64,000 bases of DNA from Eledone cirrhosa (lineage: Eukaryota): the NCBI GenBank assembly GCA_964016885.1, contig OZ024743.1, positions 261,640,001 through 261,704,000 on the forward strand, given 5' to 3'. This document shows, in pieces, positions 5,363-59,680 of the stretch. Below the pieces are notes generated by a model. The model did not search any database. It was not told where the DNA came from and saw only the letters and a program-made list of their open reading frames with translations. Each line of letters begins with the position of its first letter. Position 1 is the first letter of the stretch. The position numbers were made by a program, and so were the translations under genes.

Positions 5363-5364
<2 letters not shown>

Positions 5365-7010
5365 CAGGAGAAGTACCTAGCTAAAAGTAAACCCTTCTAC
5401 TTAGCTTTTGTAGACCTAGAGAAAGCCTTTGACAGTCCCCTGCTCCATTATCTGGTGGGCTCTTAGAAAACTAGGTGTAGATGAATGGCTTGTGAGAGCT
5501 ATACAAGCCATGTATAAAGAAACAGTCAGCAAGATTAGAATTAACAACGAATATAGTGAAGAGTTTAGCGTAAAAGTTGGTGTTCATCAGGGCTCTGTCC
5601 TTAGCCCCCTCCTATTTATTATCGCCCTCCAAGCTATAACGGAGGAGTTCAAGACCGGCTGCCCATGGGAACTTCTATACGCAGATGATCTAACGCTCAT
5701 AGCCGAATCAATGGCTGAACTAGAGAAGAAATTCCAAACATGGAAGCATGGCCTAGAATCAAAAGGCCTTAAAGTTAACTTGTCTAAGACTAAAGTCCTA
5801 ATATGTAGGAAGGAGAATAGGGCACTGGTCCCATCTGGGAAATGGCCATACTCAGTGTGTAGGAAAGGAGTAGGCAGAAACTCCATTTTATGTCCCAAAT
5901 GCAAAGTATGGGTGCATAAAAGATGTAGTGGGATCAGAGGTAAGCTAACTAAGAATATAGATTTTATATGTGGCCGGTGCTCTGGTGCAATAAGTAGCAG
6001 CAAATGCCCACAGAATACTAGCTCATTCCATTGCCCAGTTGATTCTATAGAAATAGTGGACACCTTCCATTACCTGGGTGACAATCAGCAGTGGTGGAGG
6101 GTGCTCCGAAAGTACTGTAGCTAGAGTCCGAACGGGAGGGAAAAAGTTCAGAGAGCTAATACCACTATTGGCCGCTAAAGGTTTCTCTCTAAAAATAAAA
6201 GGCAGGCTGTATGGTGCCTGCATACGAACAGTGATGTTACATGGCAGTGAGACATGGGCCTTGTGTGCAGAGGATCTACGCAGACTGGAGAGGAACGAAG
6301 CTTGCATGCTCCGTTGGATGTGTAATAGTAACATATGCGAACGGCAAAGCATAAATGAACTAAGTGAGAAATTAAGAATAAGAGGGATCAGATGCTGTTT
6401 ACTTGAGAGAAGACTACGTTGGTATGGTCACGTGATGCGCATGAAAGACAACAGCTGTATTAAAAAGTGCAGGGCGATCAAAATAGACGGTAGCTACGGA
6501 GTAGGCAGACCCAGAAAAACCTGGGACGACTTGATAAAATCCGACCTCACACACTTACACCTCTCCAAGACAATGTCACTGGACCGAGATCTTTGGTGCT
6601 ACGCAGTAATACAGAAGACCCGCCTTGCCTAAGTACAAAGCGAAACCTACAGTCAGTAGGCACCTCTTAACCAAAATACACCCCCGTCCCTCTACCCCTA
6701 CCCCCACCGCCATCTACACCGCCCCTTTCGATGTAAAGCTATGTTGGTACCACAACATCCAGTCCTAAATAAATGAGGGCATGTAGGTGTCACGACAAAA
6801 AAACACAGTCCACGCTGTAATGTGGCCGTGTAGGTAACACGGTAAAAACCTCCCAGTCCACACTGTAAACGTGGTTGGTGTTAGGAAGGGCATCCAGCCG
6901 TAGAAAACCCGCCAGACAGTCCTGAGCAAGACAACCAATCTTGCCTCAAGTGGGACAATTCCTGTCCAAACCCATGCTAGCGTGGAAGATGGACGTTAAA
7001 TGATGATGAT
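5363..7010 (+). mobile_element. 5'-truncated RTE-clade LINE, subfamily A (frameshifted)
   Basis: RT motifs [16 protein letters not shown], then Cys/His finger and [16 protein letters not shown]; 3' UTR ends in (GAT)n; flanked by (TA)n. Confidence 0.92.
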
Positions 7011-9850: not shown

Positions 9851-10003
9851 ATTTAGAGGATGATGATGGTTGTAAGTGTGTGATATTGGCTCCATCATAG
9901 ATATATAAGCTGTACGCCATTGTGGCCCTTAAAAGATATTTTTAGAGAGTTAGTATATATATATATATATATATAGTTATGTAATAAACAACATAAGATA
10001 ATT

Positions 10004-10062
10004 ATTTCATTTACCAGTGGTTTCTTGAAGACAGATATTTATGTCTTCATTCATCAGAAAAA
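10004..10062 (-). ncRNA. Minimal type I hammerhead ribozyme (inverted copy)
   Basis: Reverse complement TTTCTGATGA-aTGAAGACA-taaatatc-TGTCTTCAa-GAAACCACTGGTA-AATGAAAT. Confidence 0.7.
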
Positions 10063-10064
10063 TC

Positions 10065-10127
10065 TTTTTTTCTGATGAATGAAGACAGACATAATATCTG
10101 TCTTCAAGAAACCACTGGTAAATGAAA
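10065..10127 (+). ncRNA. Minimal type I hammerhead ribozyme
   Basis: CTGATGA 10072-10078; stem II TGAAGACAGA/TCTGTCTTCA; GAAA 10108-10111; palindromic stem III ACCA-C-TGGT; GUA site ending 10120; stem I weak (T-run vs AATGAAA). Confidence 0.75.
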
Positions 10128-10220
10128 TAATTATCTTATGTTGTTTATTACATAACTAAAAAGCTCTGTGGCCTACATAGAGCACTCTCTTTTCCTTTAC
10201 TTTTCCTACGGAAATACTTC

Positions 10221-10271
<51 letters not shown>

Positions 10272-10986: not shown

Positions 10987-12476
10987 GTATAAAGAAACAG
11001 TCAGCAAGGTTAGAATTAACAACGAATATAGTGAAGAGTTTAGCGTAAAAGTTGGCGTCCATCAGGGCTCTGTTCTCAGCCCCCTACTATTTATTATTGC
11101 CCTTCAGGCTATAACAGAGGAGTTCAAGACAGGCTGCCCATGGGAACTCCTATACGCAGACGACCTGACACTCATAGCGGAATCAATGGCCGAGCTAGAG
11201 AAGAAATTCCAAACATGGAAGCACGGCCTAGAGTCAAAAGGACTTAAAATTAACCTGGCTAAGACCAAAGTTCTAGTTTGTAGGAAAGAAAACAAGGCGG
11301 CGGTCCTTTCTGGGAAATGGTCGTGCTCGGTATGTAGGAAAGGCGTAGGTAGAAACTCCATCTTATGTCCTAAATGCAAAGTATGGGTGCATAAAAGATG
11401 TAGTGGGATCACAGGTAAGCTAACTAAGAACATAGACTTTACATGTGGCCGGTGTTCTGGTGCAATAAGTAGCAGCAAGTGCCCACAAAATACTAGCTCT
11501 TTCAATTGCGCAGAGGGTTCTATAGAAATAGTGGACAGCTTCCGTTACCTGGGCGATAAAATCAGCAGTGGGGGAGGGTGCTCTGAAAGTACTGTAGCTA
11601 GAGTCAGAACTGGTTGGAAAAAGTTCAGAGAGCTTATACCACTATTAGCTGCTAAAGGGTTCTCCCTAAAAAAATGAAAGGCAGGTTGTACGATGCCTGC
11701 ATACGAACAGCAATGTTGCATGGTAGTGAGACCTGGGCATTGTGTGCAGAGGATATACGCAGACTAGAGAGGAACGAAGCTTGCATGCTCCGCTGGATGT
11801 GTAACAGTAATATACGTGAACGGCAAAGCATAAACGAACTAAGGAAAAAATTAGAGATAAGAGGGATCAGATGTTGTTTACTCGAGAGAAGGCTGCGTTG
11901 GTATGGACACGTGATGCGCATGAAAGTCGATAGCTGTATTACAAAGTGCAGGGCAATAAAGATAGACGGTAGCCACGGAATAGGCAGACCTAGAAAAACA
12001 TGGGATGAGCTGATAAACTCCGACCTCACACACTTACACCTCTCCAAGACAATGTCACTGGACCGTGACCTTTGGCGGTACTCAGTAACAGAGAAGACCC
12101 GCCTTGCCAGTAGGCATCTCTAACAAACTACACCCCGTCCCGCCACTACCCCCACCCCATCCACACCACCCCGTTCTATGTAAAGTTATGTTGGTGCCGC
12201 GCCATCCAGGCCGAAACAAATGAGATCGTGTAGGTGTCACGACAAAAAAACACACAGTCCACGCTGTAATGTGGCCGTGTAGGCAACACGGTAAAAACCT
12301 CCCAGACCCACACTGTAAATGTGGTTGGTGTTAGGAAGGGCATCCAACTGTAGAAAACCTGCCAGACAGTCCTATGCGAGCAAGACAATCACTCTTGCCT
12401 CAAGTGGGACTACCCCCGTCCAAACCCATGCAAGCGTGGAACACGGACGTTAAACGTTGATGATGATGATGATGAT
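10984..12476 (+). mobile_element. 5'-truncated RTE LINE, subfamily A (young; single frameshift in A-run ~11670)
   Basis: ORFs 10865-11677 and 11674-12123 with RT motifs; (GAT)n tail; 5' junction shares ATGTATA with the flanking microsatellite. Confidence 0.93.
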
Positions 12477-13040: not shown

Positions 13041-14227
13041 ATTACAGGGAAAAATGCGGGCGCATGTAAAGAAATATTCTTAAATTAATAAACCTAGAAA
13101 AGTAAAGGACAAGTTATTACACCTGGAAAAGTAAAGGACAAGAAAACTTCTTAAAATATTGCAGGTAAAGTCTAAATTTAAAAAAAAATATTTAGATTAT
13201 AAAACTAAAAATAAATAATTATAAGTTAATTGTTAAAAAAATATCACTTTAAAGGACTGGAAAAATGACTGTCTTATAGGGAGAGTTGACTACTGTATAC
13301 TTAATTTTTTTCTTGGTGTATACAAATTAATCTTTTTAAAATAAAATTTGTACAATAATTTGTACAATAATTAATTAATAATAATAATAATAATTAATAT
13401 GTACAATTTATTAATTTATGTTATAAGATATTTAAAAATTTTCACTCTTAATCAAATTATATTTTAAAAAATTTAGTTATAAAATAATGCAGTAAAATAA
13501 ATCAAAAACAGTGCATCATATAATTGCACTTTTTATGAGTATTACAGATTTTTTTTTATAATATAGTAAAATTCAACATCTCAAGGGGCAAAATTAGGTA
13601 AAAGTCAATTCATCAATTATTCATTTATAGTGAATCAATCAATTATAGTGAATTCATCAATTCATTAGATGAACTGTTGAATTAGACAATGTTTAATTTT
13701 TAATTGTAGTCTAATTTTACTCTACCTAAAAATGTAGATTGGTTATTTTGATCTCTGACAGGTCTTAAATTTCATTATTAAACAATTATAATTTGTTATT
13801 ATTTATCATTACAGTTGGCTCCCTAATTAATTATTAATTAATTGTTCGTGTCATTTACACGCCAAAATTTTGTTTTATTTGATGTTTATAATTGTCACTC
13901 ATTTTTTCAGTCCCATTTAGTAAAGTAAAATAAAGTATATTTATTTAATGACCCAACGACTATGGTGTAAATTAGGATCACAAAATTAAATAAATGATCA
14001 TAAATTAGTATTATTATCAATTAGTCAACAGTATTATTAGAATTTATCACTTTCTATGTATATTTAAATCAAATATTTTTTATTATTCAAATTAATACTA
14101 TAGCTGCAATATTTTAAGAAGTTTTCTTGTCCTTTACTTTTCCAGGTGTAATAACTTGTCCTTTACTTTTCTAGGTTTATTAATTTAAGAATATTTCTTT
14201 ACATGCGCCCGCATTTTCCCCTGTAAT
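13041..14227. mobile_element. Non-autonomous long-TIR (foldback/MITE-like) element with very AT-rich interior
   Basis: ~124-bp near-perfect inverted repeats 13041-13164 / 14104-14227, each with two direct copies of GAAAAGTAAAGGACAAG; ends TA-CAGGG...CCCTG-TA. Confidence 0.8.
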
Positions 14228-15800: not shown

Positions 15801-16843
15801 TCTGGTGCAATAAGTAGCAGCAAGTGCCCACAGAATACTAGCTCATTCCATTGCACAGATGGTTCTATAGAAATAGTGGACAGCTTCCGTTACCTGGGTG
15901 ACAAAATCAGCAGTGGGGGAGGGTGCTCTGAAAGTACAGTAGCTCGAGTCAGAACTGGATGGTAAAAGTTCAGAGAGCTTATACCACTATTAGCCGCTAA
16001 AGGGTTCTCCCTAAAAATGAAAGGCAGGCTGTATGATGCCTGCATACGAACAGCAATGTTGCATGGCAGTGAGACCTGGGCATTGTGTGCAGAGGATATA
16101 TGCAGACTGGAGAGGAACGAAGCTTGCATGCTCCGCTTGATGTGTAATAGTAATATACGTGAACGGCAAAGCATAAACGAACTAAGGGAAAAATTAGAAA
16201 TAAGAGAGATCAGATGGTGTTTATTTGAGAGAAGACTACGTTGGTATGGTCACGTGATGCGCATGAAAGACGACACCCGTATAAAAAAGTGCAGGGCAAT
16301 AAAAATAGACGGTAGCCACGGAGTAGGCAGACCCAGAGAAACCTGGGACGACTTGATAAATTCCGACCTCACACACTTACACCTCTCCAAGACAATGTCA
16401 CTGGACCGAGATCTTTGGCGCTACACAGTAATAGAGAAGACCCGCCTTACCTAAGTACAAAGTGAAACCTACTACAGTCAGTAGGCACCTCTAACAAAAT
16501 ACACCCCATCCACACTACCCCTAACTCATCCACACCACCCCTTTCAATGTAAAGTTATGTTGGTACCACAACATCCAGCTCGAAACAAATGAGGTCGTGT
16601 AGGTGTCACGACAAAAAAACACACAGTCCACGCTGTAATGTGGCCGTGTAGGTAACATGGTAAAAACCTCCCAGTTCCACACTGTAAATGTGGTTGGTGT
16701 TAGGAAGGGCATCCAGCCGTAGAAAACCCGCCAGACAGTCCTATACGAGCAAGACAACCACTCTTGCCTCAAGTGGGAAAACTCCCGTCCAAACCCATGC
16801 AAGCGTGGAATATGGACGTTAAACGGTGATGATGATGATGATG
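15801..16843 (+). mobile_element. 5'-truncated RTE LINE, subfamily A (premature stop ~15963)
   Basis: [10 protein letters not shown]...LRWYGHVMR...; same 3' UTR and (GAT)n tail. Confidence 0.92.
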
Positions 16844-22245: not shown

Positions 22246-24880
22246 ATCATCATCATCATCATCATCAACGTTTAACGTCCGTGTTCCACGCTTGCATGGG
22301 TTTGGACGGGGGTAGTCCCACTTGAGGCAAGAGTGATTGTCTTGCTCGCATAGGACTGTCTGGCAGGTTTTCTACAGTTGGATGCCCTTCGTAACACCAA
22401 CCACATTTACAGTGTGGGTCTGGGAGGTTTTTACCGTGTTGCCTACACGGCCACATTACAGCGTGGACTGTGTGTTTTTTTTGTCGTGACACCTACACGA
22501 TCTCATTTGTTTCGGCCTCGATGGCGCGGCACCAACATAACTTTACATAGAACGGGGTGGTGTGGATGGGGTGGGGGTGGTGGTGGTGGGACGGGGTGTA
22601 TTTTGTTAGAGATGCCTACTGGCTGGAGTAGGTTTTACTATATATTTAGGTAAGGCGGGTCTTCTCTGTTACTGAGTACCGCCAAAGGTCTCGGTCCAGT
22701 GACATTGTCTTGGAGAGGTGTAAGTGTGTGATGTCGGAGTTTATCAGCTCGTCCCAGGTTTTTCTAGGTCTGCCTATTCCGTGACTACCGTCTATCTTTA
22801 TTGCCCTGCACTTTGTTATACAGCTATCGACTTTCATGCGCATCACGTGTCCATACCAACGTAGCCTTCTCTCGAGTAAACAACATCTGATCCCTCTTAT
22901 CTCTAATTTTTTCCTTAGTTCGTTTATGCTTTGCCGTTCACGTATATTACTGTTACACATCCAGCGGAGCATGCAAGCTTCGTTCCTCTCTAGTCTGCGT
23001 ATATCCTCTGCACACAATGCCCAGGTCTCACTGCCATGCAGCATTGCTGTTCGTATGCAGGCATCGTACAACCTGCCTTTCATTTTTAGTGAGAACCCTT
23101 TAGCAGCTAATAGTGGTATAAGCTCTCTGAACTTTTTCCAACCAGTTCTGACTCTAGCTACAGTACTTTCAGAACACCCTCCCCCACTGCTGATTTTATC
23201 GCCCAGGTAACGGAAGCTGTCCACTATTTCTATAGAACCTTCTGCGCAATTGAAAGAGCTAGTAGTTTGTGGGCACTTGCTGCTACTTATTGCACCAGAG
23301 CACCGGCCACATGTAAAATCTATGTTCTTAGTTAGCTTACCTGTGATCCCACTACATCTTTTATGCACCCATACTTTGCATTTAGGACATAAAATGGAGT
23401 TTCTACCTACGCCTTTCCTACACACCGAGCACGACCATTTCCCAGAAGGGACCGCCGCCTTGTTTTCTTTCCTACAAACTAGTACTTTGGTCTTAGCCAG
23501 GTTAATTTTAAGTCCTTTTGACTCTAGGCCGTGCTTCCATGTTTGGAATTTCTTCTCTAGCTCGGCCATTGATTCCGCTATGAGTGTCAGGTCGTCTGCG
23601 TATAGGAGTTCCCATGGGCAGCCTGTCTTGAACTCCTCTGTTATAGCCTGAAGGGCAATAATAAATAGTAGTGGGCTGAGAACAGAGCCCTGATGGACGC
23701 CAACTTTTACGCTAAACTCTTCACTATATTCGTTGTTAATTCTAACCTTGCTGACTGTTTCTTTATACATGGCTTGTATAGCCCTCACAAGCCATTCGTC
23801 AACGCCTAGTTTTCTAAGAGCCCACCAGATAATGGTGCGGGGGACTCTGTCGAAGGCTTTCTCCAAGTCGACAAAAGCTAAGTAGAGGGGTTTACCTTTA
23901 GCTAGGTACTTCTCCTGTAGTTGTCGTACTATGAAAAGAGCGTCTGTGGTACTTTTGCCTGACACAAACCCGAACTGCATTTCATCTAGGTCAATTCTCT
24001 CTCTGATTAGTTGCGCTATTACTTTTTCCGTGACCTTCATGACCTGGTCGATTAATTTAATGCCTCTATAATTACTCCTATCTAGGGCGTCTCCTTTACC
24101 CTTATAACAGTTAACGATGATGCTGCTATGCCAGTCCTTCGGAACAACCCCATTCTGTACGACTTGGTTAACTATGCGGGTGACCATGGTGTGTCCCACC
24201 GTGCCAGATGCCTTCAGCATCTCAGCAACTATTTCCGAAGGCCCAGCCGCCTTACCCGTCTTCATATCCTTGATTGCCTTACTTATTATACTCCCCTCGA
24301 CTAACACTGCTGGTCCCTCTATTGGGTCGATATGGGGGAGACTGCCTTTCTCCCAATTATTCTCCTCATTTAGTAGCCTTTCATAGTGACACTTCCAAGC
24401 TACCTTCTTATCAGCGTCGGTGATGGCAAGTGTGCCATCGTCGTTTAGTACACACTTCTCCCCGACAATATCACGGTTTTCCTTGACGCATTGCCTAGCA
24501 ATCCTGAACACCTCACGTTTTTGGTCATCGCGTTGTAGAACATGCTTGAACTTTCTTTCCTCAGCTTCCCTTCTTGCTAAGTACACTTGTCTCCTAGCTT
24601 CCCTCCTGGCCACTTGATAGTCCTCTCTACTTCCCCCATCCCGCCATACTTTCCAAGCCTGCTTTTTGGCCTTAATTGACCCCTCCACCTTACTGTTCCA
24701 CCACCATGTTACTCTCCTCCTGCCTCCAGGCCTGCTCCAGCCACAGACTTCGTCTGTCGCCAACAGCAGGTTTGCTTTCAGAAATTCCCACTCTCCCTCT
24801 ATATTGTCCGACTCTAAATGTTCTTCCTTACTGTCGAAAGCATCAAGTAATATGTTTTGAAATTTATTTTTGGCTGTGGG
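22246..24880 (-). mobile_element. Longest RTE LINE copy, subfamily A, 5'-truncated (no endonuclease domain)
   Basis: Uninterrupted frame through RT and C-terminus; (CAT)n tail at 22246. Confidence 0.95.
22646..24763 (-). CDS. RTE-clade reverse transcriptase with inserted PHD-like C4HC3 finger (truncated TE ORF)
   Basis: 705 aa: [37 protein letters not shown]; CSVC..CPKC..H..C..CGRC. Confidence 0.85.
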
Positions 24881-29560: not shown

Positions 29561-30812
29561 GTGTGCGGGCGAAATTTGTTCGCAAGATTACTGTCTAGGA
29601 AAAAACAACACAGTAGTTTTATTTTTTAAGATATATTTATCAAACTTGGGTCAGTTTGTCTTCATGACTTGTTCTTTCGAGCTCACTCGATAAACCCGCC
29701 ATTGGCTTTGATGACGGCCTCAAGGAAGCCTCGGAACCGGCTACAGTCCTTTGTCACTGTCCCCTGACTTAGGCCCCTAAAGGCACTTGTGATCCTGGCC
29801 TTCAGATCGTCTTTCGTATTGCAGCTAGATCTGTTGATGTCTCGTTCCACTGCGCCCCACACAAAGAAGTTGAAGGGGTTGCAGTCAGGAGAGCTGGGAG
29901 GCCAGATGTCAGGTGAAGTGTGGTCGACGAAGTTCTCTGACAGCCAGGCTTGGGTCTTTCGGCTGGTATGGCAGGGTGCTGAATCTTGCTGCCACACGTA
30001 CGGCCTACCTGCAGCTACCTGGTCGATCCAGGGCTTTACTACCTCGCTCAGAACGCGGATGTAGCCATCGGTGTTCAGCTTGAGGCCCAATGTTGTCGCT
30101 GGAAACTTTGTCTGCATGACTCTGGGCACGTCTTTGGATGAGACAGCGAGCCACCTGTTGTTCTGGGAGTTGATCTTCTGGTCTTGGCAGAAGTTTTTCT
30201 CGTCGGAGAAAAACCACAGCATGCCTGGCTCCAGTGGGTGTTTCAACTTGTTGATCAGCTTCTTTGTGTGCTTCAGTCGCTTTTCTTGCATCGCCTTTGA
30301 CAGAAATTCTTTCCTCATCTTGTATGAAACATAGCGAATGTCTTCATGTACCACCAACCTAATGAGCTTTTCATCCACGTCTTTCTCCCTTGCAATGGCA
30401 CTTTCTCCATTGCATCGACTTGCTAGGTTCATTGTTGATGATATCCTGAACTTCAGCGAAGAACACGGGCGTTCTGAAGGCGTCAGATCGTCGATCATGT
30501 GTTTTCCTCTCTGGTGTTGCTTTGTAGTCGAATCCTGAATCTTCCAATTCCTTTCTGACCTTTTCCACCATTCTCCTGCTGACCCTGAGAAAGTCTGAAA
30601 TTTCCTTATTTGTCCTCTCGGTGCGGATTCCAAGAAGAACTCTGTGTCTCTTCCACAAATTTGGAGGTTCAAAATTATTCATAATCAATTATTCTTAAAA
30701 TAAATAATGGAAATATAGTCACTGCTCTTATGAAGACAAGAGTGACAATGGAAGTAAAAAAAATTTGCATAAAATTAGCAGTTGAAAATTGCGAACAAAT
30801 ATCGTGCACACC

Positions 30813-30815: not shown

Positions 30816-30853
<38 letters not shown>

Positions 30854-30854
30854 T

Positions 30855-30968
30855 ATAGGAAAACCATCGAGCCCCTGACTCTTTTCCTATTACCCACTCT
30901 ACTACCCTAAGAATTGAGTACTCTGGTGCGTTATGGTCCATCTGGTATCTTACCACACCTTCTTTGTT
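30855..30968 (+). mobile_element. Miniature PLE tail insertion with short inverted arm
   Basis: ATAGGAAAA...TTTTCCTAT then TACCCACTCTACTACC...TCTTTGTT, homologous to 31339-31420 and 34238-34320; in (TA)n. Confidence 0.75.
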
Positions 30969-31304: not shown

Positions 31305-31338
<34 letters not shown>

Positions 31339-31340
<2 letters not shown>

Positions 31341-33554
31341 CGAAGGAAATGTGGTAAGGAACCAGGTGGACCATAACGCACCAAAGTACTCAATACTTGA
31401 GGTAGTAGAGTGGGTAATAGGAACCAGTAAGACCCCCGCCGATCAAACCATCCTAGGAACATCACAAACAACCTGGTCAAAAACATCTCCCTCCGCATAT
31501 CCCGTTTGTCAGCTAATGAGCGGATATTCGATGAACATGCGCCTTATTACAACCAGGCCCTCAAGCGGAGTGGTTTCCGGGAGGAAATATCCTACTGTCC
31601 AGCTCCCATTAGCGGAACCAGCAGGAGACACCGCCGCTCACGCAATGTAACATGGTTCAATCCTCCCCACAACGCAGAGGTGACAACTCCCATCGGGAAA
31701 CTATTCTTTAGGCTCATTGAAAAACACTTCCCATTACAACACCGCTACCACAACATAATTAACAAAAATACCATCAAACTCTCTTACAGCACTACACCAA
31801 ACTTCGCACAAAACATCGTCTCCTCTAACAACAAAAAACTCAACCCCGATGGCAGAATTAACCTAAATAGCAGTGGAGAACCGACCAGGAGGTGTAACTG
31901 CCCGGATAGATCTATTTGCCCACTCGACAATAGATGCAGAGACCGTAATGTGATCTACCAGTGCAACGTGAGGACGGATACCTCCAACAAAGCCTATATA
32001 GGACTTACCGCATGTGACTTCAAGACCCGGCTATACCAACATAGACATACCTTCCGAAACCCGGCCCGGCGTCACGCCACTACACTTTCGGGCCACATAT
32101 GGGACCTCAAGGACAACAACATCACCTATGATCTCACTTGGAGATTACTGTCCAGAGCCAATTCTTACACGGGAGGACGCCGTCCGTGCAATTTATGCTC
32201 GGAGGAAACTTTACAAATGCTGTTTTCGACGGACCAACTCCTAAACAAGAAAGATGAACTGGTCACTGCATGTAAACATAGATTGCGTAAGACTTACCTC
32301 GCCCTCAAACCCCATAATGACCCGGGGGGGTAGACTAGGGCTATAACACCCCACTTGCCGATTTTGCAATGGGTAACCCCTGCTTGCCAAGGAAGACGTA
32401 AGATCTTCTTTGTATTCTTTTATCGCTTCCTTTATTTCCTCCCCCCCCCTCTCCTTAGTCCTTCTACCCCAGCTCTTCTCCTTTGTCGGCGTCTTTTCTC
32501 GCCCACCCGAGGCTGCCCTTTGGCCCCATGTAGCCTTAGTACCCCCACCACCCCTTCCCCTAGTCTATGATAGATTTGGCGGACTCCGCCCTTTATAGCA
32601 GTTGGCTTAGACCCCGGATACTTGCCCCCCTTTTTCCGACCGCTCCCACTATCCTCTGTGCCCTCTATATTTCTTAGTGGCACTTATGCCTTATTTTTTC
32701 GTTTCAGTATTTCTTGCTTCGCTTTTCTTCTGGGCGGGGTGGATTCTGAATTTATTTCTCCGTATTCTACCTTTATTTCGTACGAACTTTCATGTAGCTT
32801 GTTTTAGATCTTTTAGAGTTAGCATTAGTATATATTTTTCTCGGGACTCAGAATTATTATCTCATACAAGTTCACTTTGCTGCACTGGGTCGTTGCTGGC
32901 CCGGGATGGAAACCTTTATTGTTTATTTCGTGGTAGTCTCTTTAGTATTTTGGCCCCTTTTGTTGACCCGTCACCGTATCATTTACGTACTTATACCTCT
33001 TAAAAGGGTCCTTGCCTAATCCGTCCCACCTAGTTCTTTTACTTATTTCGTTATTTCTTTATTTCTTTATTTCTTTCTTTACTTCTTTCTTTCTTTCTTT
33101 ATTTTATTCTAGCCTAACAATAGCCTGAGACCTAGGTCGTAGAATTTAATTTACTTTACTTTTTTCTTTACACTTATTTGCTTTTCTTCACTCTCAGTAT
33201 TTTTTCTTTCCTATATATATTTTTCTACCCCCCATTGTTCTACCTACCGTTCCGACTTCCTCCCCCTCCCCTGTATCTTCTTTGACCTCATGCCCAGCTG
33301 TAGCTGGCACTACCAACGCTTGATTGGGTCTACTCCACCCCCTCCCCTCTTTCCCCTACTGGCAGGTTTAGCCACCATCTCCCCTACTAATTTGCAACCA
33401 CAGAATCACTACTGATTTTTGACAATCACTTTGACCATATATGGAATTACCCCTTGAGAAGATCGGCTATTTAAATACCAGGATAAATTTTCATTTAGTC
33501 CAGAATTAGCCGTCGAAACGGCTTGAGCTCAGCTGTCGGGGTCTTACTGGTTCC

Positions 33555-33557
<3 letters not shown>
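31339..33557 (+). mobile_element. Penelope-like element (tentatively Nematis-like), 5'-truncated with inverted terminal segment
   Basis: ORF 31506-32333: WFNPP, CNC..CPL..C..NVIYQC..YIGLT..FKTRLYQH (GIY-YIG); long 3' UTR; 31339-31436 is an inverted copy of the 3' tail; both ends in (TA)n. Confidence 0.92.
33449..33542 (+). ncRNA. Type I hammerhead ribozyme, U3-A8 core variant
   Basis: Stem I ACCCC/GGGGT; TTGAGAA 33454-33460; stem II GAtCGGCTA/TAGCCGTC with long loop; GAAA 33515-33518; stem III ACGGCT/AGCTGT; GUC site ending 33537. Confidence 0.8.
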
Positions 33558-33586
<29 letters not shown>

Positions 33587-33819: not shown

Positions 33820-34135
33820 ATATATTATAATTGAATATGAAAGAGATAAACACGGATATACACATATGTGTTCAAATCGTAAGGGACTAATTCTGGTTTG
33901 TATTTATTTTCTTGATTTATTCTTAAATTTAGTCTGGCAAACCCTATTGTCCATAGTTAGTATCTTTTCCACCTTAGCGAATCTGGTCCCTTACGATTTG
34001 AACACATATATGTGTATATCTGTGTTTATCTCTCTTTTATATTCAATTATAATATATGGCTCGGAAAAATCTCTTTCTTTGAGCTATCTAATTGTAAGAG
34101 ACTATTTTGAGTTTCTAACTCAATATATACCTTTT
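33820..34135. mobile_element. Non-coding snap-back hairpin element in (TA)n (different sequence family)
   Basis: Inverted arms ~33820-33893 / ~33979-34057, spacer ~85 bp, tail to ~34135. Confidence 0.7.
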
Positions 34136-34237: not shown

Positions 34238-36732
34238 AACAAAGGAATTGTGGTAAGGAACCAAATGGACCATAATGCACCAGAGTACTCAATACTTAGC
34301 ATAGTAGAGTGGGAAATAAGAAAAAAGTATGGCAGAGCTCAAGCCGTTTCGACGGCTATTTCTGGACAAAATTAGAATTTTTAGCCTGGTGAATAAATAG
34401 CCGAACTTTTCAAGGGGGGTACTTCCTTATATGGTCAGATTGTAGTTGTCAAGAGGATTGATTAAAATTTGTTGTAAACACAAATAAGTCTATCATTTGG
34501 TGGGGGGTAGGGGTGGCTGAACTTGCCTGTAGAACAATAGGGGAGTGAGTGGAGCGGTCAAGCGTTGAAAGTGATATGTATACATCAGATTCTAAGGATA
34601 GTGTATGAAGTGGGGGAGGGAGGTAATCGAAAGAGAGTAGGAGACAATAAAAGATACTAGAAATAAATTAAAAAAAAAAAAAAAAAAAAAAATTAGATAG
34701 TGAGAAAGGAATAAAGAAATCACAATGCTATCTTACAATTACAGGTTAATAAGTTGAGAATAGAAAAAACTTATAGAAATTACAAAACAGATACAAACTT
34801 AAAAGGGTTTTTAACACATCTGCTATAAGTAGTTAGAATTGGCCGAATACGTTTTACTATCTTAAAATAACAGGGGTGGGGGAACTGATGCTACAAGGCC
34901 CGATGGGCTGCATCGGGGTAGGCAAAAGGGGAAAGCAGACGAGGAAGAAAATAGGGGGTGGAAGGAAGTGATAGGATGAGACAGGGGGAAGAAGGAGACA
35001 AAGAGGAAAAGAAGAGGGATACATTTATCTATGTAAGCTGGAGTTTCCCCTAACTTATTCGGCAAGTGTGTGTGTGGGGTGTATCAGCCCTTGTCTACCC
35101 ACCCGGGTCGTTATAGGGTTTGAGGGCGAGGTAAGTCCTACGCAATCTGTGTTTGCATGCGGTTACCAGTTCATCTTTCTTGTTTATGAGTTGGTCCTTT
35201 GAAAACAGCATTTGTAATGTTTCTTCCGAGCATAAGTTACATGGACGGCGTGCTCCGGTGTAAGAGTTAGCCCTGGACAGTAAGCTCCAAGTGAGATTGT
35301 AGGTTATATTGTTATCTTGGAGGTCCCAGATGTGGCCAAACGTGTAGTGGCATGTCGCCGAACCGGGTTTCGGAAAGTGTGTCGGTGTTGGTAGAGCCGG
35401 GTCTTGAAGTCACATACGGTTAATCCTATATAAGCTTTGTTGGAAGTGTCCGTCCTCACGTTGCACTGGTAGATCACGTTACGTTCTCGGCATTTGTTGT
35501 TGAGGGGGGCACGTAGATCTATCAGGGCAGTTACACCTCCTGGTTGGCTCTCCACTGATGTCTAGGTTATTTCTTCCATAGGGGTTGAGTTTTTTGTTGT
35601 TTGAGGAGACAATGTTTTGTACGAAGTTAGGTGTGGTGCTGTAGGAGAGTTTGATGGTGTTTTTGTTGATTATGTTGTGGTAGCGGTGTTGTAGTGGGAA
35701 ATGTTTTTCGAGGAGTCTAAAGAAGATTTTCCCCAATAGGTGTTGCCACCTTGGCATTGTGGGGAGGATTGAACCACGTTACGTTGCGTGAGCGGCGGTG
35801 TCGCCTGCTGGTTCCGCTAAGGGAAGCTGGATACAAGGATATTTTCTACTATTTAAACTCACCGAAATGTTTCCTGCATTCGGCGGTGGATTATACCGGG
35901 ATGATGGGCTCCTCACCCTCAAAGGGTACAACCCCAGTAGTACAGACCGGGTCTGTAAACAACTAATCAACTTCTTCCGGGACTGGGGATTTAAAATCAC
36001 CCTAACCCGAGTTAATTTCCTGGACGTTACTCTTAACCTCGAAAATGATCTGTACTACTCATACAGGAAACCAAACGACAACATGCACTACATCCACCGC
36101 CGCTCTAACCATCCTAGAAACATCACCAATAACCTGGTTAAAAACATCTCCCTCCTTATATCTTGTTTGTCCGCTAATGAGCAGATATTCGACGAACACG
36201 CGCCTCATTACAACCAGGCCCTTAAGCGGAGTGGCTTCCGGGAGGAAATATCCTTTTATCCAGCTTCCCTTAGCGGAACCAACTTATTAACCTGTAATTG
36301 TAAGATAGCATTGTGATTTCTTTATTCATTTCTCACTATCTAATTTTTTTAATTTTTTTATTTCTTTCTAGTATCTTTTATTGTCTCCTACTCTCTTTCG
36401 ATTTACCTATTCTATAACCTCCCTCCATCACTTCATACACTATTCTTAGAATCTGATGTATACATATCACTTTCAACGCTTGACCGCTCCACTCACTCCC
36501 CTATTGTTCTACAGGCAAGTTCAGCCACCCCTACCTCCCACCAAATGCCATGATAAACTTATTTGTGTTTACAACAAATTTTAACCAATCCTCTTGACAA
36601 CTACAATCTTCCCATATAAGGAAGTACGCCCTTGAAAAGTTTGGCTATTTATTCACCAGGCTAAACATTCTAATTTAGTCCAGAAATAGCCGTTGAAATG
36701 GCTTGAGCTCTGCCGTCAGGGTCATACTTTTT

Positions 36733-36737
<5 letters not shown>
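34238..36737. mobile_element. Rearranged inverted Penelope-like element, same lineage as 31339-33557
   Basis: Minus: tail, HHR, 3' UTR and GIY-YIG ORF to ~35845; plus: RT segment (LYRDDGL, VNFLDVTL, SNHP) ~35846-36281 jumping to the 3' UTR and HHR; inverted arms ~34320-34755 / ~36281-36737. Confidence 0.88.
36627..36722 (+). ncRNA. Degenerate hammerhead ribozyme (U3-A8 variant)
   Basis: TTGAAAA 36632-36638, GGCTATTT/AAATAGCC stem II, GAAA 36695-36698, GTC 36715-36717; stem I imperfect. Confidence 0.65.
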
Positions 36738-36797
<60 letters not shown>

Positions 36798-36801
<4 letters not shown>

Positions 36802-37067
36802 GAAGTAATTCCGTCGGAAAGGTCCAGGAAAAAAGAGTGCTCTATGTAGGTTACAGAGCTTATTAGTTATGTAATAAACAACATAGGATAATTATTTCAT
36901 TTATCAGTGGTTTCTTGAAAGCAAACAAATTTGCTTTCAGTCATCAGAATGAAAAAATCCTGGTGTATTTATTGAAAGTGGATTTGAGATGACTGAAAGC
37001 AAATTTGTTTGCTTTCAAGAAACCACTGGTAAATGAAATAATTATCTTATGTTGTTTATTACATAAC

Positions 37068-37071
<4 letters not shown>
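36798..37071. mobile_element. Second copy of the HHR hairpin element (opposite orientation)
   Basis: Tail 36798-36861, arms 36862-36945 / 36988-37071, in (TA)n; homologous to 9974-10224. Confidence 0.85.
36895..36954 (-). ncRNA. Minimal type I hammerhead ribozyme
   Basis: Minus strand TTTCATT-CTGATGA-cTGAAAGCAAA-tttg-TTTGCTTTCAa-GAAACCACTGATA-AATGAAA: perfect 7-bp stem I, 10-bp stem II; one stem III mutation. Confidence 0.78.
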
Positions 37072-53155: not shown

Positions 53156-55354
53156 CATCATCATCATCATCATCAGGTTTAGCGTCCGTGTTCCACGCTT
53201 GCATGGGTTTGGACGGGGGTTTTCCCACTTGAGGCAAGAGTGGTTGTCTTGCTCGCATAGGACTGTCTGGCGGGTTTTCTACAGCTGGATGCCCTTCCTA
53301 ACACCAACCACATTTACAGTGTGGGGCTGGGAGGTTTTTACCGTGTTGCCTACACGGCCACATTACAGCGTGGACTGTCTGGCGGGTTTTCTACAGCTGG
53401 ATGCCCTTCCTAACACCAACCACATTTACAGTGTGGGGCTGGGAGGTTTTTACCGTGTTGCCTACACGGCCACATTTACAGCGTGGACTGTGTGTTTTTT
53501 TTGTCGTGACACCTACACGATCTCATTTGTTTCAGCCTGGATGTTGTGGGACCAACATAACTGTACATTGAAAGGGGCGGTGTGGATGGGGTGGAGGTGG
53601 TGGGACGGGGGGGGGTGTTTTGATAGAGATGCCTACTGACTGTAGTAGGTTTTTACTTTGTATTTAGGTAAGGCGGGTCTTCTCTATTACTGAGTACCGC
53701 CAAAGGTCTCGGTCCAGTGACATTGTCTTGGAGAGGTGTAAGCGTGTGAGGTCGGAATTTATCAGCTCGTCCCATGTTTTTCTGGGTCTGCCTACTCCGT
53801 GGCTACCGTCTATCTTTATTGCCCTGCACTTTGTTATACAGCTGTCGTCTTTCATGCGCATCACGTGACCGTACCAACGTAGCCTTCTCTCGACTAAACA
53901 ACATCTGATCCCTCTTATTTCTAATTTTTTCCTTAGTTCGTTTATGCTTTGCCGTTCACGTATATTACTATTGCACATCCAGCGGAGCATGCAAGCTTCG
54001 TTCCTCTCTAGTCTGCGTATATCCTCTGCACACAATGCCCAGGTCTCACTGCCATGCAGCATTGCTGTTCGTATGCAGGCATCGTATAACCTGCCTTTCA
54101 TTTTTAGGGAGAACCCTCTAGCGGCTAATAGTGGTATAAGCTCTCTGAACTTTTTCCATCCAGTTCTGACTCTAGCTACTGTACTTTCAGAGCACCCTCC
54201 CCCACTGCTGATTTTGTCACCCAGGTAACGGAAGCTGTCCACTATTTCTATAGAACCCTCTGCGCAGTTGAAGGAGCTAGTATTTTGTGGGCACTTGCTG
54301 CTGCTTATTGCACCAGAGCACCGGCCACATGTAAAATCTATGTTCTTAGTTAGCTTACCTGTGATCCCACTACATCTTTTATGCACCCATACTTTGCATT
54401 TGGGACATAAAATGGAGTTTCTACCTACGCCTTTCCTACACACTGAGCATGGCCATTTCCCAGATGGGACTGCCGCCATATTTTCTTTCCTACAAACTAG
54501 AACTTTTGTCTTAGCCAGGTTAATTTTAAGGCCTTTTGATTCTAGGCCGTGCTTCTATGTTTGGAATTTCTTCTCTAGTTTGGTCATTGATTCAGCTATG
54601 AGCGTTAGATCATCTGCGTATAGGAGTTCCCATGGGCAGCCGGTCTTGAACTCCTCTGTTATAGCCTGAAGGGCAATAATAAATAGTAGGGGGCTAAGAA
54701 CAGAGCCCTGATGGACACCAACTTTTACGCTAAACTCTTCACTATATTCGTTGTTAATTCTAACCTTACTGACTGTTTCTTTATACATGGCTTGTATAGC
54801 TCTCACAAGCCATTCGTCAACACCTAGTTTTCTAAGAGACCACCAGATAATGGAACGGGGGACTCTGTCAAAGGCTTTCTCCAAGTCGACGAAAGCTAAG
54901 TATAAGGGTTTACTTTTAGCTAGGTACTTCTCCTGTAGTTGTCGTACAATGAAAAGAGCGTCTGTGGTACTTTTGCCTGACACAAACCCGAACTGCATTT
55001 CATCTAGATCAATTCTCTCTCTGATTAGTTGCGCTATTACTTTTTCCGTGACCTTCATGACCTGGTCGATTAATTTAATGCCTCTATAGTTACTCCTATC
55101 TAGGGCATCTCCTTTTCCCTTATAGCAGTTAACGATGATGCTGCTACGCCAGTCCTTTGGAACAACCCCATTCTGTACGACTTGGTTAACTATCCGGGTG
55201 ACCATGGTATGTCCCACCGAACCAGATGCCTTCAGCATCTCAGCAACTATTTCCGAAGGACCAGCCGCCTTACCCGTCTTCATATCTTTGATTGCCTTGC
55301 TTATTGTACTACCCTGGACTAACACTGCTGGTCCCTCTATTGGGTCGATGTGGG
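53156..55354 (-). mobile_element. 5'-truncated RTE LINE, subfamily A (one premature stop at 54555; 112-bp duplication in 3' UTR)
   Basis: ORFs 54555-55394 and 53664-54479 with RT motifs; (CAT)n tail. Confidence 0.93.
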
Positions 55355-57911: not shown

Positions 57912-58785
57912 CAGGGTGCGGACGATATTTGTTTGCAAGATTACTGTCTAGGAAAAAATAACACAGTAGTTTTTTATTTTTTAAGATATATTTATCAAAC
58001 TTGGGTCAGTTTGTCTTCATGACTTGTTCTTTCGATCTCACTCGATAAACCCGCCATTGGCTTTGATGATCGCCTCAAGGCGTCCTTGGCACCGGCTACA
58101 GGCCTTCGTCACTGTCCCCCGACTTAGGCACTCGTGATCCTGGCCTTCAGATCGTCTTTCGTATTGCAGCTAGATCTGTTGATGTCTCGTTCCACTGCGC
58201 GCCACACAAAGAAGTCGAAGGGGTTGCAGTCAGGCGAGCTGGGAGGCCAGATGTCAGGTAAAGTGTGGTCGATGAAGTTCTGACAGCCAGGCTTCGGTCT
58301 TTCGGCTGGTATGGCAGGGCGCTGAGTCTTGCTGTCACACGTACAGCCTACCTGCAGCTACCTGGTTGATCCAGGGCTTTACTACCTCGCTCAGAACGTG
58401 GATGTAACCATCGGTGTTCAGCTTGAGGCCCTCAGGGAAGAAGTGAGGTGGCATGACGTCACCCTGACTGCTGACGACACCTAAGACCAATGTTGTCGCT
58501 GGAAACTTTGTCTGCATGACCCTGGGCACGTCTTTGGATGAGACACCATTCTCCTGCTGACACTGAGAAAGTCTGAAATTTCCTTATTTGTCCTCCCGGT
58601 GTGGATTCCAAGAAGAACTCCGTGTGTGTCTCTTCCACAAATTTGGAGGTTCAAAATTATTCATATTCTGAAAATAAATAATGAAAATATAGTCGTTTTT
58701 ATGAAGATAAGAGTGACAACGGAAGTAAAAAAATTTGCATAAAGTTAGCAGTTGAAAATTGCGGACAAATATTGTCCTCACCCTG
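57912..58785 (-). mobile_element. Internally deleted DD37D (maT-type) transposon with both TIRs
   Basis: TA-CAGGGTGCGGACGATATTTG ... CAAATATTGTCCTCACCCTG-TA; close match to 29561-30815; deletion junction ~58545. Confidence 0.9.
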
Positions 58786-59476: not shown

Positions 59477-59680
59477 ATATTTATTAAAATAACAGATTAA
59501 AGTTTAAGCAAAGAATCGCTGCTTTCACCCTTAATCCCGTTAAGGGTGAAAGCAGCGATTCTTTGCTTAAACTTTAATCTGTTATTTTAATAAATATTTG
59601 CTCGACGGTTCTTATATATTTGATATATATTTATCCTTATCGAGCCCTCTTTGGATTTTAGTCTTCAAATTTATTATTAT

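Follow-up and report, generated by a model that had tools for sequence, protein, structure and literature searches.

Does a junction inside a transposable element record the cutting of its RNA by a ribozyme in living cells? The 64,000-nt window of the Eledone cirrhosa genome analyzed here (contig OZ024743.1, positions 261,640,001 to 261,704,000) carries a Penelope-like element (PLE), element A, whose short inverted arm ends at the predicted scissile bond of the element's own hammerhead. The original prediction took this junction for a fossil of cDNA synthesis running off a ribozyme-cleaved template. We conclude that a copy that stalled is the likelier reading of the arm end, rather than a demonstration of RNA self-cutting in cells.

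A truncated Hydra-type element in a TA repeat

Element A lies between a left (31305-31339) and a right (33555-33582) (TA)n target run. Its 5'-truncated ORF (31437-32333, plus strand) is open over 298 aa and encodes the end of the RT thumb, a CxCx5C linker (residue 153 of the fragment), a GIY-YIG-type endonuclease with a VIY..YIG motif at residues 172-189, and a late CxxC plus CxH, as judged from motifs and protein comparison. A long 3' UTR follows (32334-33442, plus strand), and 1,204 nt separate the stop codon from C17 of the hammerhead. The fragment is about 40% identical to 700-aa RT plus endonuclease proteins, and 9,230 relatives were found at E <= 0.001; a Pfam search with the fragment returned no match. 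The GIY-YIG endonuclease is C-terminal to the RT, and the RT motif YRDDG is seen in copy B (see below). The RT N-terminus is absent from the copies in the window, and among relatives of at least 690 aa, DK[TS] occurs in 25 of 26 and RW[KR] in 17 of 26.

The Hydra clade of PLEs has a CxCx5C linker instead of CX2-5CxxC, a late CxxC plus CxH flanking the conserved E and N without an internal CCHH, RWK and DKT motifs in the N-terminal part of the RT, a (TA)n insertion and a 3' hammerhead (PMC8557442). Element A matches the former linker and not the latter, carries the late CxxC...CxH with no canonical internal CCHH seen by eye, and shares both the (TA)n insertion and the 3' hammerhead with the clade. 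By these motifs, with most of the RT core absent from the window, we assign A as a putative 5'-truncated Hydra-type PLE in (TA)n. In its linker, late CxxC and CxH, (TA)n insertion and 3' hammerhead it resembles the C-terminal-endonuclease elements Hydra-1_Obim, Hydra-1_Amil and Penelope-13_HM (PMC8557442), and Penelope-13_HM likewise has a noted inverted 5'-truncated partner (File S1 of that paper). Hydra-1_Obim as described there has a different hammerhead, and A's 3' UTR is much longer (PMC8557442). From its sequence, the family of A is classed as a new member of the Hydra-type PLEs, distinct from the published Hydra-1_Obim. The copy is young, with arms identical at 20/20 positions, an open ORF, and read contigs that differ from it at 0-2 positions per 200 nt.

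A variant type I hammerhead

The hammerhead of A (33443-33554, plus strand) was identified from an unconstrained fold and a motif descriptor. Its core at 33454-33460 is a variant in which U3-A8 replaces C3-G8. Stem II is long (a region of 54 nt) and contains an inner hairpin at 33481-33501; GAAA lies at 33515-33518, stem III has 5 bp, C17 is at 33537 and stem I is bulged. The core pairs and letters are U3-A8, G10.1-C11.1, A15.1-U16.1 and GUC, and stem I is open (type I). The unconstrained minimum-energy fold equals the core-constrained one, with an unpaired core and stems I, II and III formed. Pair probabilities are 0.97-0.98 for inner stem I, 0.62 for G10.1-C11.1 and 0.63-0.75 for stem III.

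The folding energy is ordinary relative to shuffled sequences (z = -0.47), and an Rfam search found no hammerhead among its 5 matches up to E = 10. Those five and the hits of further Rfam searches, all below gathering scores, were rejected as repeat or hairpin noise. Because the energy is no better than that of shuffles and Rfam offers no match, the hammerhead call rests on motif and topology. The variant core and the 54-nt stem II region may be the reason for the missing Rfam match, and a hit in a database does not by itself define a type I hammerhead. U3-A8 is a natural covariation reported to be active in vitro (PMC3088659), and it also occurs in schistosome PLE hammerhead motifs (PMC4209133). 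On its modeled structure we consider A's hammerhead real, and its 5-bp stem III and compensated core give the predicted ribozyme the look of one that can cut in monomeric form.

The inverted arm ends at the predicted scissile bond

We number element A from the base after GUC, so that 33538 is +1. The inverted arm (31339-31436, minus strand) comprises the 3' arm of stem I and the "tail". It runs from 31436 to 31339/31340, covering 98 nt from +1 to +98, and then enters (TA)n; its distal end is common to copies B and C. The plus-strand counterpart, +1 to +20 (33538-33557), ends at a proximal start site and is duplicated in the arm. The original prediction held that the minus-strand segment begins with the sequence following the GUC, and this was borne out: 31417-31436 (minus) equals 33538-33557 (plus) at 20/20 nt, and this 20-mer occurs exactly twice in the window.

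A join to the RRSNHP coding sequence with about 1 nt of ambiguity had also been proposed, and the alignment agrees. The arm ends at +1 because 31437 is not the complement of GUC's C. Position 31436 doubles as the final letter of a His codon ahead of the RRSNHP frame, with a C at the aligned column in the intact ORF of copy B, and the ORF carries on leftwards from 31436 in contigs of three public runs. Since 31436 thus fits both arm and ORF, the junction (31433-31437) is placed at +1 or +2. Exact microhomology amounts to 1 nt, and an imperfect match extends over 3 of 4 nt when the arm's last four letters are compared with the ORF. A C-run microhomology is present at the junction.

If arm ends were spread evenly over 110-2,200 nt, an end on a 2-nt target would have a chance of p = 0.018-0.001 per arm and 0.17-0.009 per ten arms. 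A coincidence of this type is unusual within one window, yet expected occasionally across a large scan. Short arms with an end no more than ~10 bases from the site evidently occur often, and the background against which the coincidence is to be read is higher for it. The fossil-cDNA proposal keeps its structural part: the inverted arm is a further cDNA-type segment of element A in the opposite orientation, it is joined to the ORF, and its end lies at the predicted scissile bond. Its further step, that the junction is in vivo evidence of hammerhead activity, is not supported, as this is a single event and read-through is the rule.

Other copies share the tail layout and mostly read through the site

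PLEs often carry an inverted 5'-truncated copy plus a tail at one end (PMC8557442). In the anole element Poseidon PAc, the tail is bounded by two internal RT start sites on the RNA, and the PLE protein makes nicks on both strands of AT-rich DNA and extends them (PMC11167929). The ends of element A (+98 and +20) match this two-start-site layout with an inverted partner. A distal end near +98 is common to A, B and C and a proximal end at +20 to A and B; one distal and one proximal end occur together in A, B and C, in D and E, and in the metagenome locus L010.

Element B (34238-36737) belongs to A's family and is 82-88% alike to A. Its tail arm (minus strand) crosses the hammerhead and reaches an inversion at ~35847/35848, and its plus arm ends at +20. 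Relative to B's other arm, the tail arm (34316-34340, minus) lacks 9 nt over GUC and the scissile bond; this gap could reflect a template jump across cut RNA or a later deletion. B's plus arm also passes from the ORF (36281) to the 3' UTR with ~1.1 kb skipped, which we read as an internal template switch (36243-36300, 34727-34756). The mini copy C (30853-30968, tail arm on the plus strand) has a tail arm starting at ~+6, a short inverted stub and ~10 unassigned nt. We considered the left stub of C as an arm ending at GUC and rejected this, since subfamily letters in read contigs give those bases to the tail arm.

Two mini inverted copies, D (9976-10223) and E (36799-37071, beyond the right (TA)n run of B), represent a second hammerhead-bearing PLE family with a CUGAUGA core and a GUA site. 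Both arms of each read through the site, and they stop at the ribozyme's 5' edge or slightly short of it on the upstream side. Among 60 metagenome loci, 13 have a hammerhead by descriptor, and an informative truncated arm occurs in 3 only (L010, L012 and L056); the remaining loci were counted as uninformative rather than negative.

Taken over several families, tail-bearing arms (n = 8) end at the site in 1/8 and near +6 in 1/8, and 6/8 read through. The end points are +1/+2 in A and ~+6 in C, with read-through in B, in D and E of the second family, and in the metagenome loci L010, L056 and L012 (upstream repeat). The arm stops at ~-72 in L010 and ~-69 in L056, and the upstream direct repeat of L012 stops at -43. 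Junctions at the cut site, which would peak over many copies if they were ribozyme-defined as in R2, amount to 1/8 arms against dominant read-through; a small peak would be compatible with these few copies and best-supported rows.

The tail between the element ends contains a hairpin-like motif ending in GAG(C/T)ACT (31385-31410 on the minus strand in A, 34284-34309 and 10164-10186) that is conserved among Hydra-type relatives. It is present in distant families (L006, L009, L012, L013, L023, L026, L038, L040, L051-L053, L056 and L058) and recurs just ahead of the ORF start in L002, L006 and L012. We regard the motif as a candidate protein-binding site that may position the RT. Tail-pattern scans of metagenome and viral contigs gave 0 matches, and no relative turned up when viral contigs were scanned at the protein level.

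The window holds other repeats besides these copies. A 331-aa frame at 29683-30678 (minus strand) with WFFSDEKNF and QQDSAPCH motifs has related pieces at 57916-58785 and resembles a Tc1/mariner-type transposase. Another long repeat family, with copies 86-93% alike (5363-7008, 10992-12471, 15801-16840, 22268-24336 and 53492-55354), is probably a LINE. Inverted repeats at 59477-59597, 33830-34047 and 13042-14226 lie beside TA-rich runs, with no hammerhead core by descriptor scan. A repeat finder run on the window was swamped by microsatellite.

Public reads are dominated by read-through

Reads and contigs at 80% likeness were drawn from 4 of 20 listed public runs, of which X18 is a RAD run; loci are unevenly sampled in it, and depth ratios were not taken as copy numbers. 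Peaks of read begins and ends were rejected as biology, since those checked (31536/31539 and 33504) lie on CATG or AATT, as for RAD restriction sites. In X18, the joint between 31436 and 33537 is carried by 3,509 reads with 91 starts, and another 667 reads cross by neighboring joints; together, 4,176 run straight across the site. A further 1,943 loose ends at 31436 have a consensus that is antisense hammerhead, with an agreement of 0.86. In X1, 144 contigs likewise continue into antisense hammerhead at 31436 (agreement 0.77, subfamilies mixed). If all disagreement stood for real junctions, non-read-through would reach at most ~6% of X18 reads at 31436, a rough ceiling given the uneven sampling of loci. 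A modest peak at +1, up to roughly that level, is compatible with the X18 data.

The junctions considered come from the rows with the most support: 15 out of 151 joints, 12 out of 78 filler rows and 24 out of 1,046 loose-end rows. They are ranked by support rather than drawn at random, and joints are visible only if inside the reference. A small +1 spike could be hidden, because only these best-supported rows are represented. Among them, 17 rows (15 distinct) connect the tail to sense hammerhead, with ends from +76 to ~-9 and none cleanly at +1. The arms end at +76, +67, +60, +57, +54, +48, +39 (twice) and +19, and further ends lie at ~+7, +4, +3, -3 and ~-9, with one row unassignable. A's own inversion junction is absent from the listed best-supported read pieces.

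The partner arm starts at 33497-33501 (-41 to -37) in 10 of the 15 distinct listed rows. This position is the 3' base of the inner hairpin of stem II, paired at P = 0.95, and suggests an influence of structure (or of an RNA start) on where arms end in A's family. The cluster around -40 (33493-33510), formed by presumably +20-primed arms of short inverted copies, may reflect a point at which the RT stalls or transcription begins, or the edge of an alignment, and it may partly mark where other subfamilies cease to resemble the reference.

Twin priming, stalling and microhomology joining as the favored explanation

We favor, at a probability of roughly 55%, a twin-primed insertion in which arm A was stopped by a stall in the ribozyme fold and joined through a short C-run match. 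Priming would have taken place on both nicked target strands, at +98 on one and at +20 on its partner. The cDNA started at +20 would have been copied for ~2.1 kb through an uncut hammerhead, and the +98 cDNA would have halted in the 3' strand of the ribozyme. At this halt point there would be a G-C stem to unzip, with stem III met and the partner cDNA possibly displaced; the two cDNA 3' ends would then have annealed and been repaired. A stall in the 3' strand, a collision with the +20 cDNA and capture at the C-run together account for a broad cluster of ends on either side of +1. The pairing of a distal with a proximal end in A to E and in L010, read-through in 6/8 arms and in most X18 reads, the scatter of the listed best-supported ends, the partner-arm cluster at the hairpin base and the microhomology at the junction speak for this account. 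So does the anole PLE, whose hammerhead core mutants left insertion unchanged in vitro and for which RNA-seq showed no ends at the site (PMC11167929). Against it stand the position of A's end within 1 nt of the scissile bond (p ~0.001-0.018 per arm under an even spread) and the expectation that a stall at stem III would fall 1-2 nt further (-1/-2) and one at inner stem I near +5. B's gap lies exactly over GUC, as a jump across cut RNA might leave, and the predicted ribozyme looks monomer-competent, both of which also weigh against a stall.

A serious rival, to which we give somewhat less weight, is run-off from ribozyme-cut RNA as a minority route. Here a longer transcript would be cut at an upstream hammerhead to give a new 5' end at +1, the +98 cDNA would run off this cut end, and the +20 cDNA would begin in the downstream uncut repeat. 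The end of arm A at +1/+2, the intact predicted fold and the 9-nt gap of B fit this route, and so does the U3-A8 core, a covariation for which in vitro activity has been reported (PMC3088659) and which other PLE hammerheads share (PMC4209133). Copy C and some listed read joints end on the 3' side of the site by a few nt, where the trimming of a run-off product could place them. Precedent comes from R2, where the type of 5' junction varies with the position at which the ribozyme cuts (PMC3774820), and the anole PLE hammerhead cuts with protein present (PMC11167929). The route is weakened by its single event among arms and X18 reads that mostly read through, the latter leaving it at most the rough ceiling of ~6%, and by the partner arm of the same insertion, which crossed an uncut site. 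There is no clean +1 among the listed best-supported joints, where inversion ends fall on both sides of the site; those at -3 and ~-9 are beyond the reach of cut RNA. These ends and the C-run microhomology count against reading junction A as in vivo evidence of cleavage.

A broader version of the same idea strikes us as doubtful, namely that the hammerhead of this Hydra-type family cuts in germ-line cells and that a few percent of the family's insertions come from cut RNA. One 5'-cut transcript would then serve both primers, with the +98 start at its new 5' end and the +20 start in the uncut downstream repeat. Pure coincidence through later rearrangement is improbable in our estimation, whether a longer inverted arm was shortened after insertion by deletion in a hairpin-prone repeat or the assembly is in error. 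Long inverted repeats can be unstable, and A's junction is missing from the listed best-supported read pieces, as such an origin would allow. The youth of the copy speaks against it, however, as do a layout that follows the family pattern and short arms that are common in reads.

Comparison with known systems and implications for PLE hammerheads

Compared with described PLEs, A stands out by its U3-A8 core and by a stem II that is both long and branched, and its tail is ~78 nt rather than 30-40 nt (PMC8557442). Like A, the anole Poseidon PAc has two defined ends downstream of the hammerhead and an AT-rich target of which both strands are nicked and extended (PMC11167929). The main text of that work does not deal with inversion breakpoints, and it reports that hammerhead cleavage is without a role in insertion in vitro (PMC11167929). 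[quoted passage not shown] In A, by contrast, the hammerhead is 3' and predicted from sequence, and read-through dominates. In LINE-1, twin priming on both target strands yields 5' inversions with microhomology at the junction. A differs from LINE-1 in that the second priming takes place at a set position (+98 or +20), not at a chance internal match, and in that its arms overlap in sequence.

The role of PLE hammerheads has been called unclear (PMC8557442); they are described as without in vivo evidence (PMC4209133) and as dispensable in vitro (PMC11167929). In the open-access literature, taken without subscription papers and the supplementary figures of PMC11167929, we found no paper linking PLE inversion breakpoints to the hammerhead site. 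If germ-line cutting were true, it would leave +1 inversion junctions and small deletions across GUC, and the in vivo activity of PLE ribozymes could be read off genomic breakpoints. The junction of A is a testable lead on PLE ribozyme function and not yet evidence for it. Whether breakpoints spike at the cut site is an inexpensive genomic test of the hammerhead's role, and the family of A suits this test: it is high-copy, its hammerhead folds well in monomeric form, and it has many short inverted copies.
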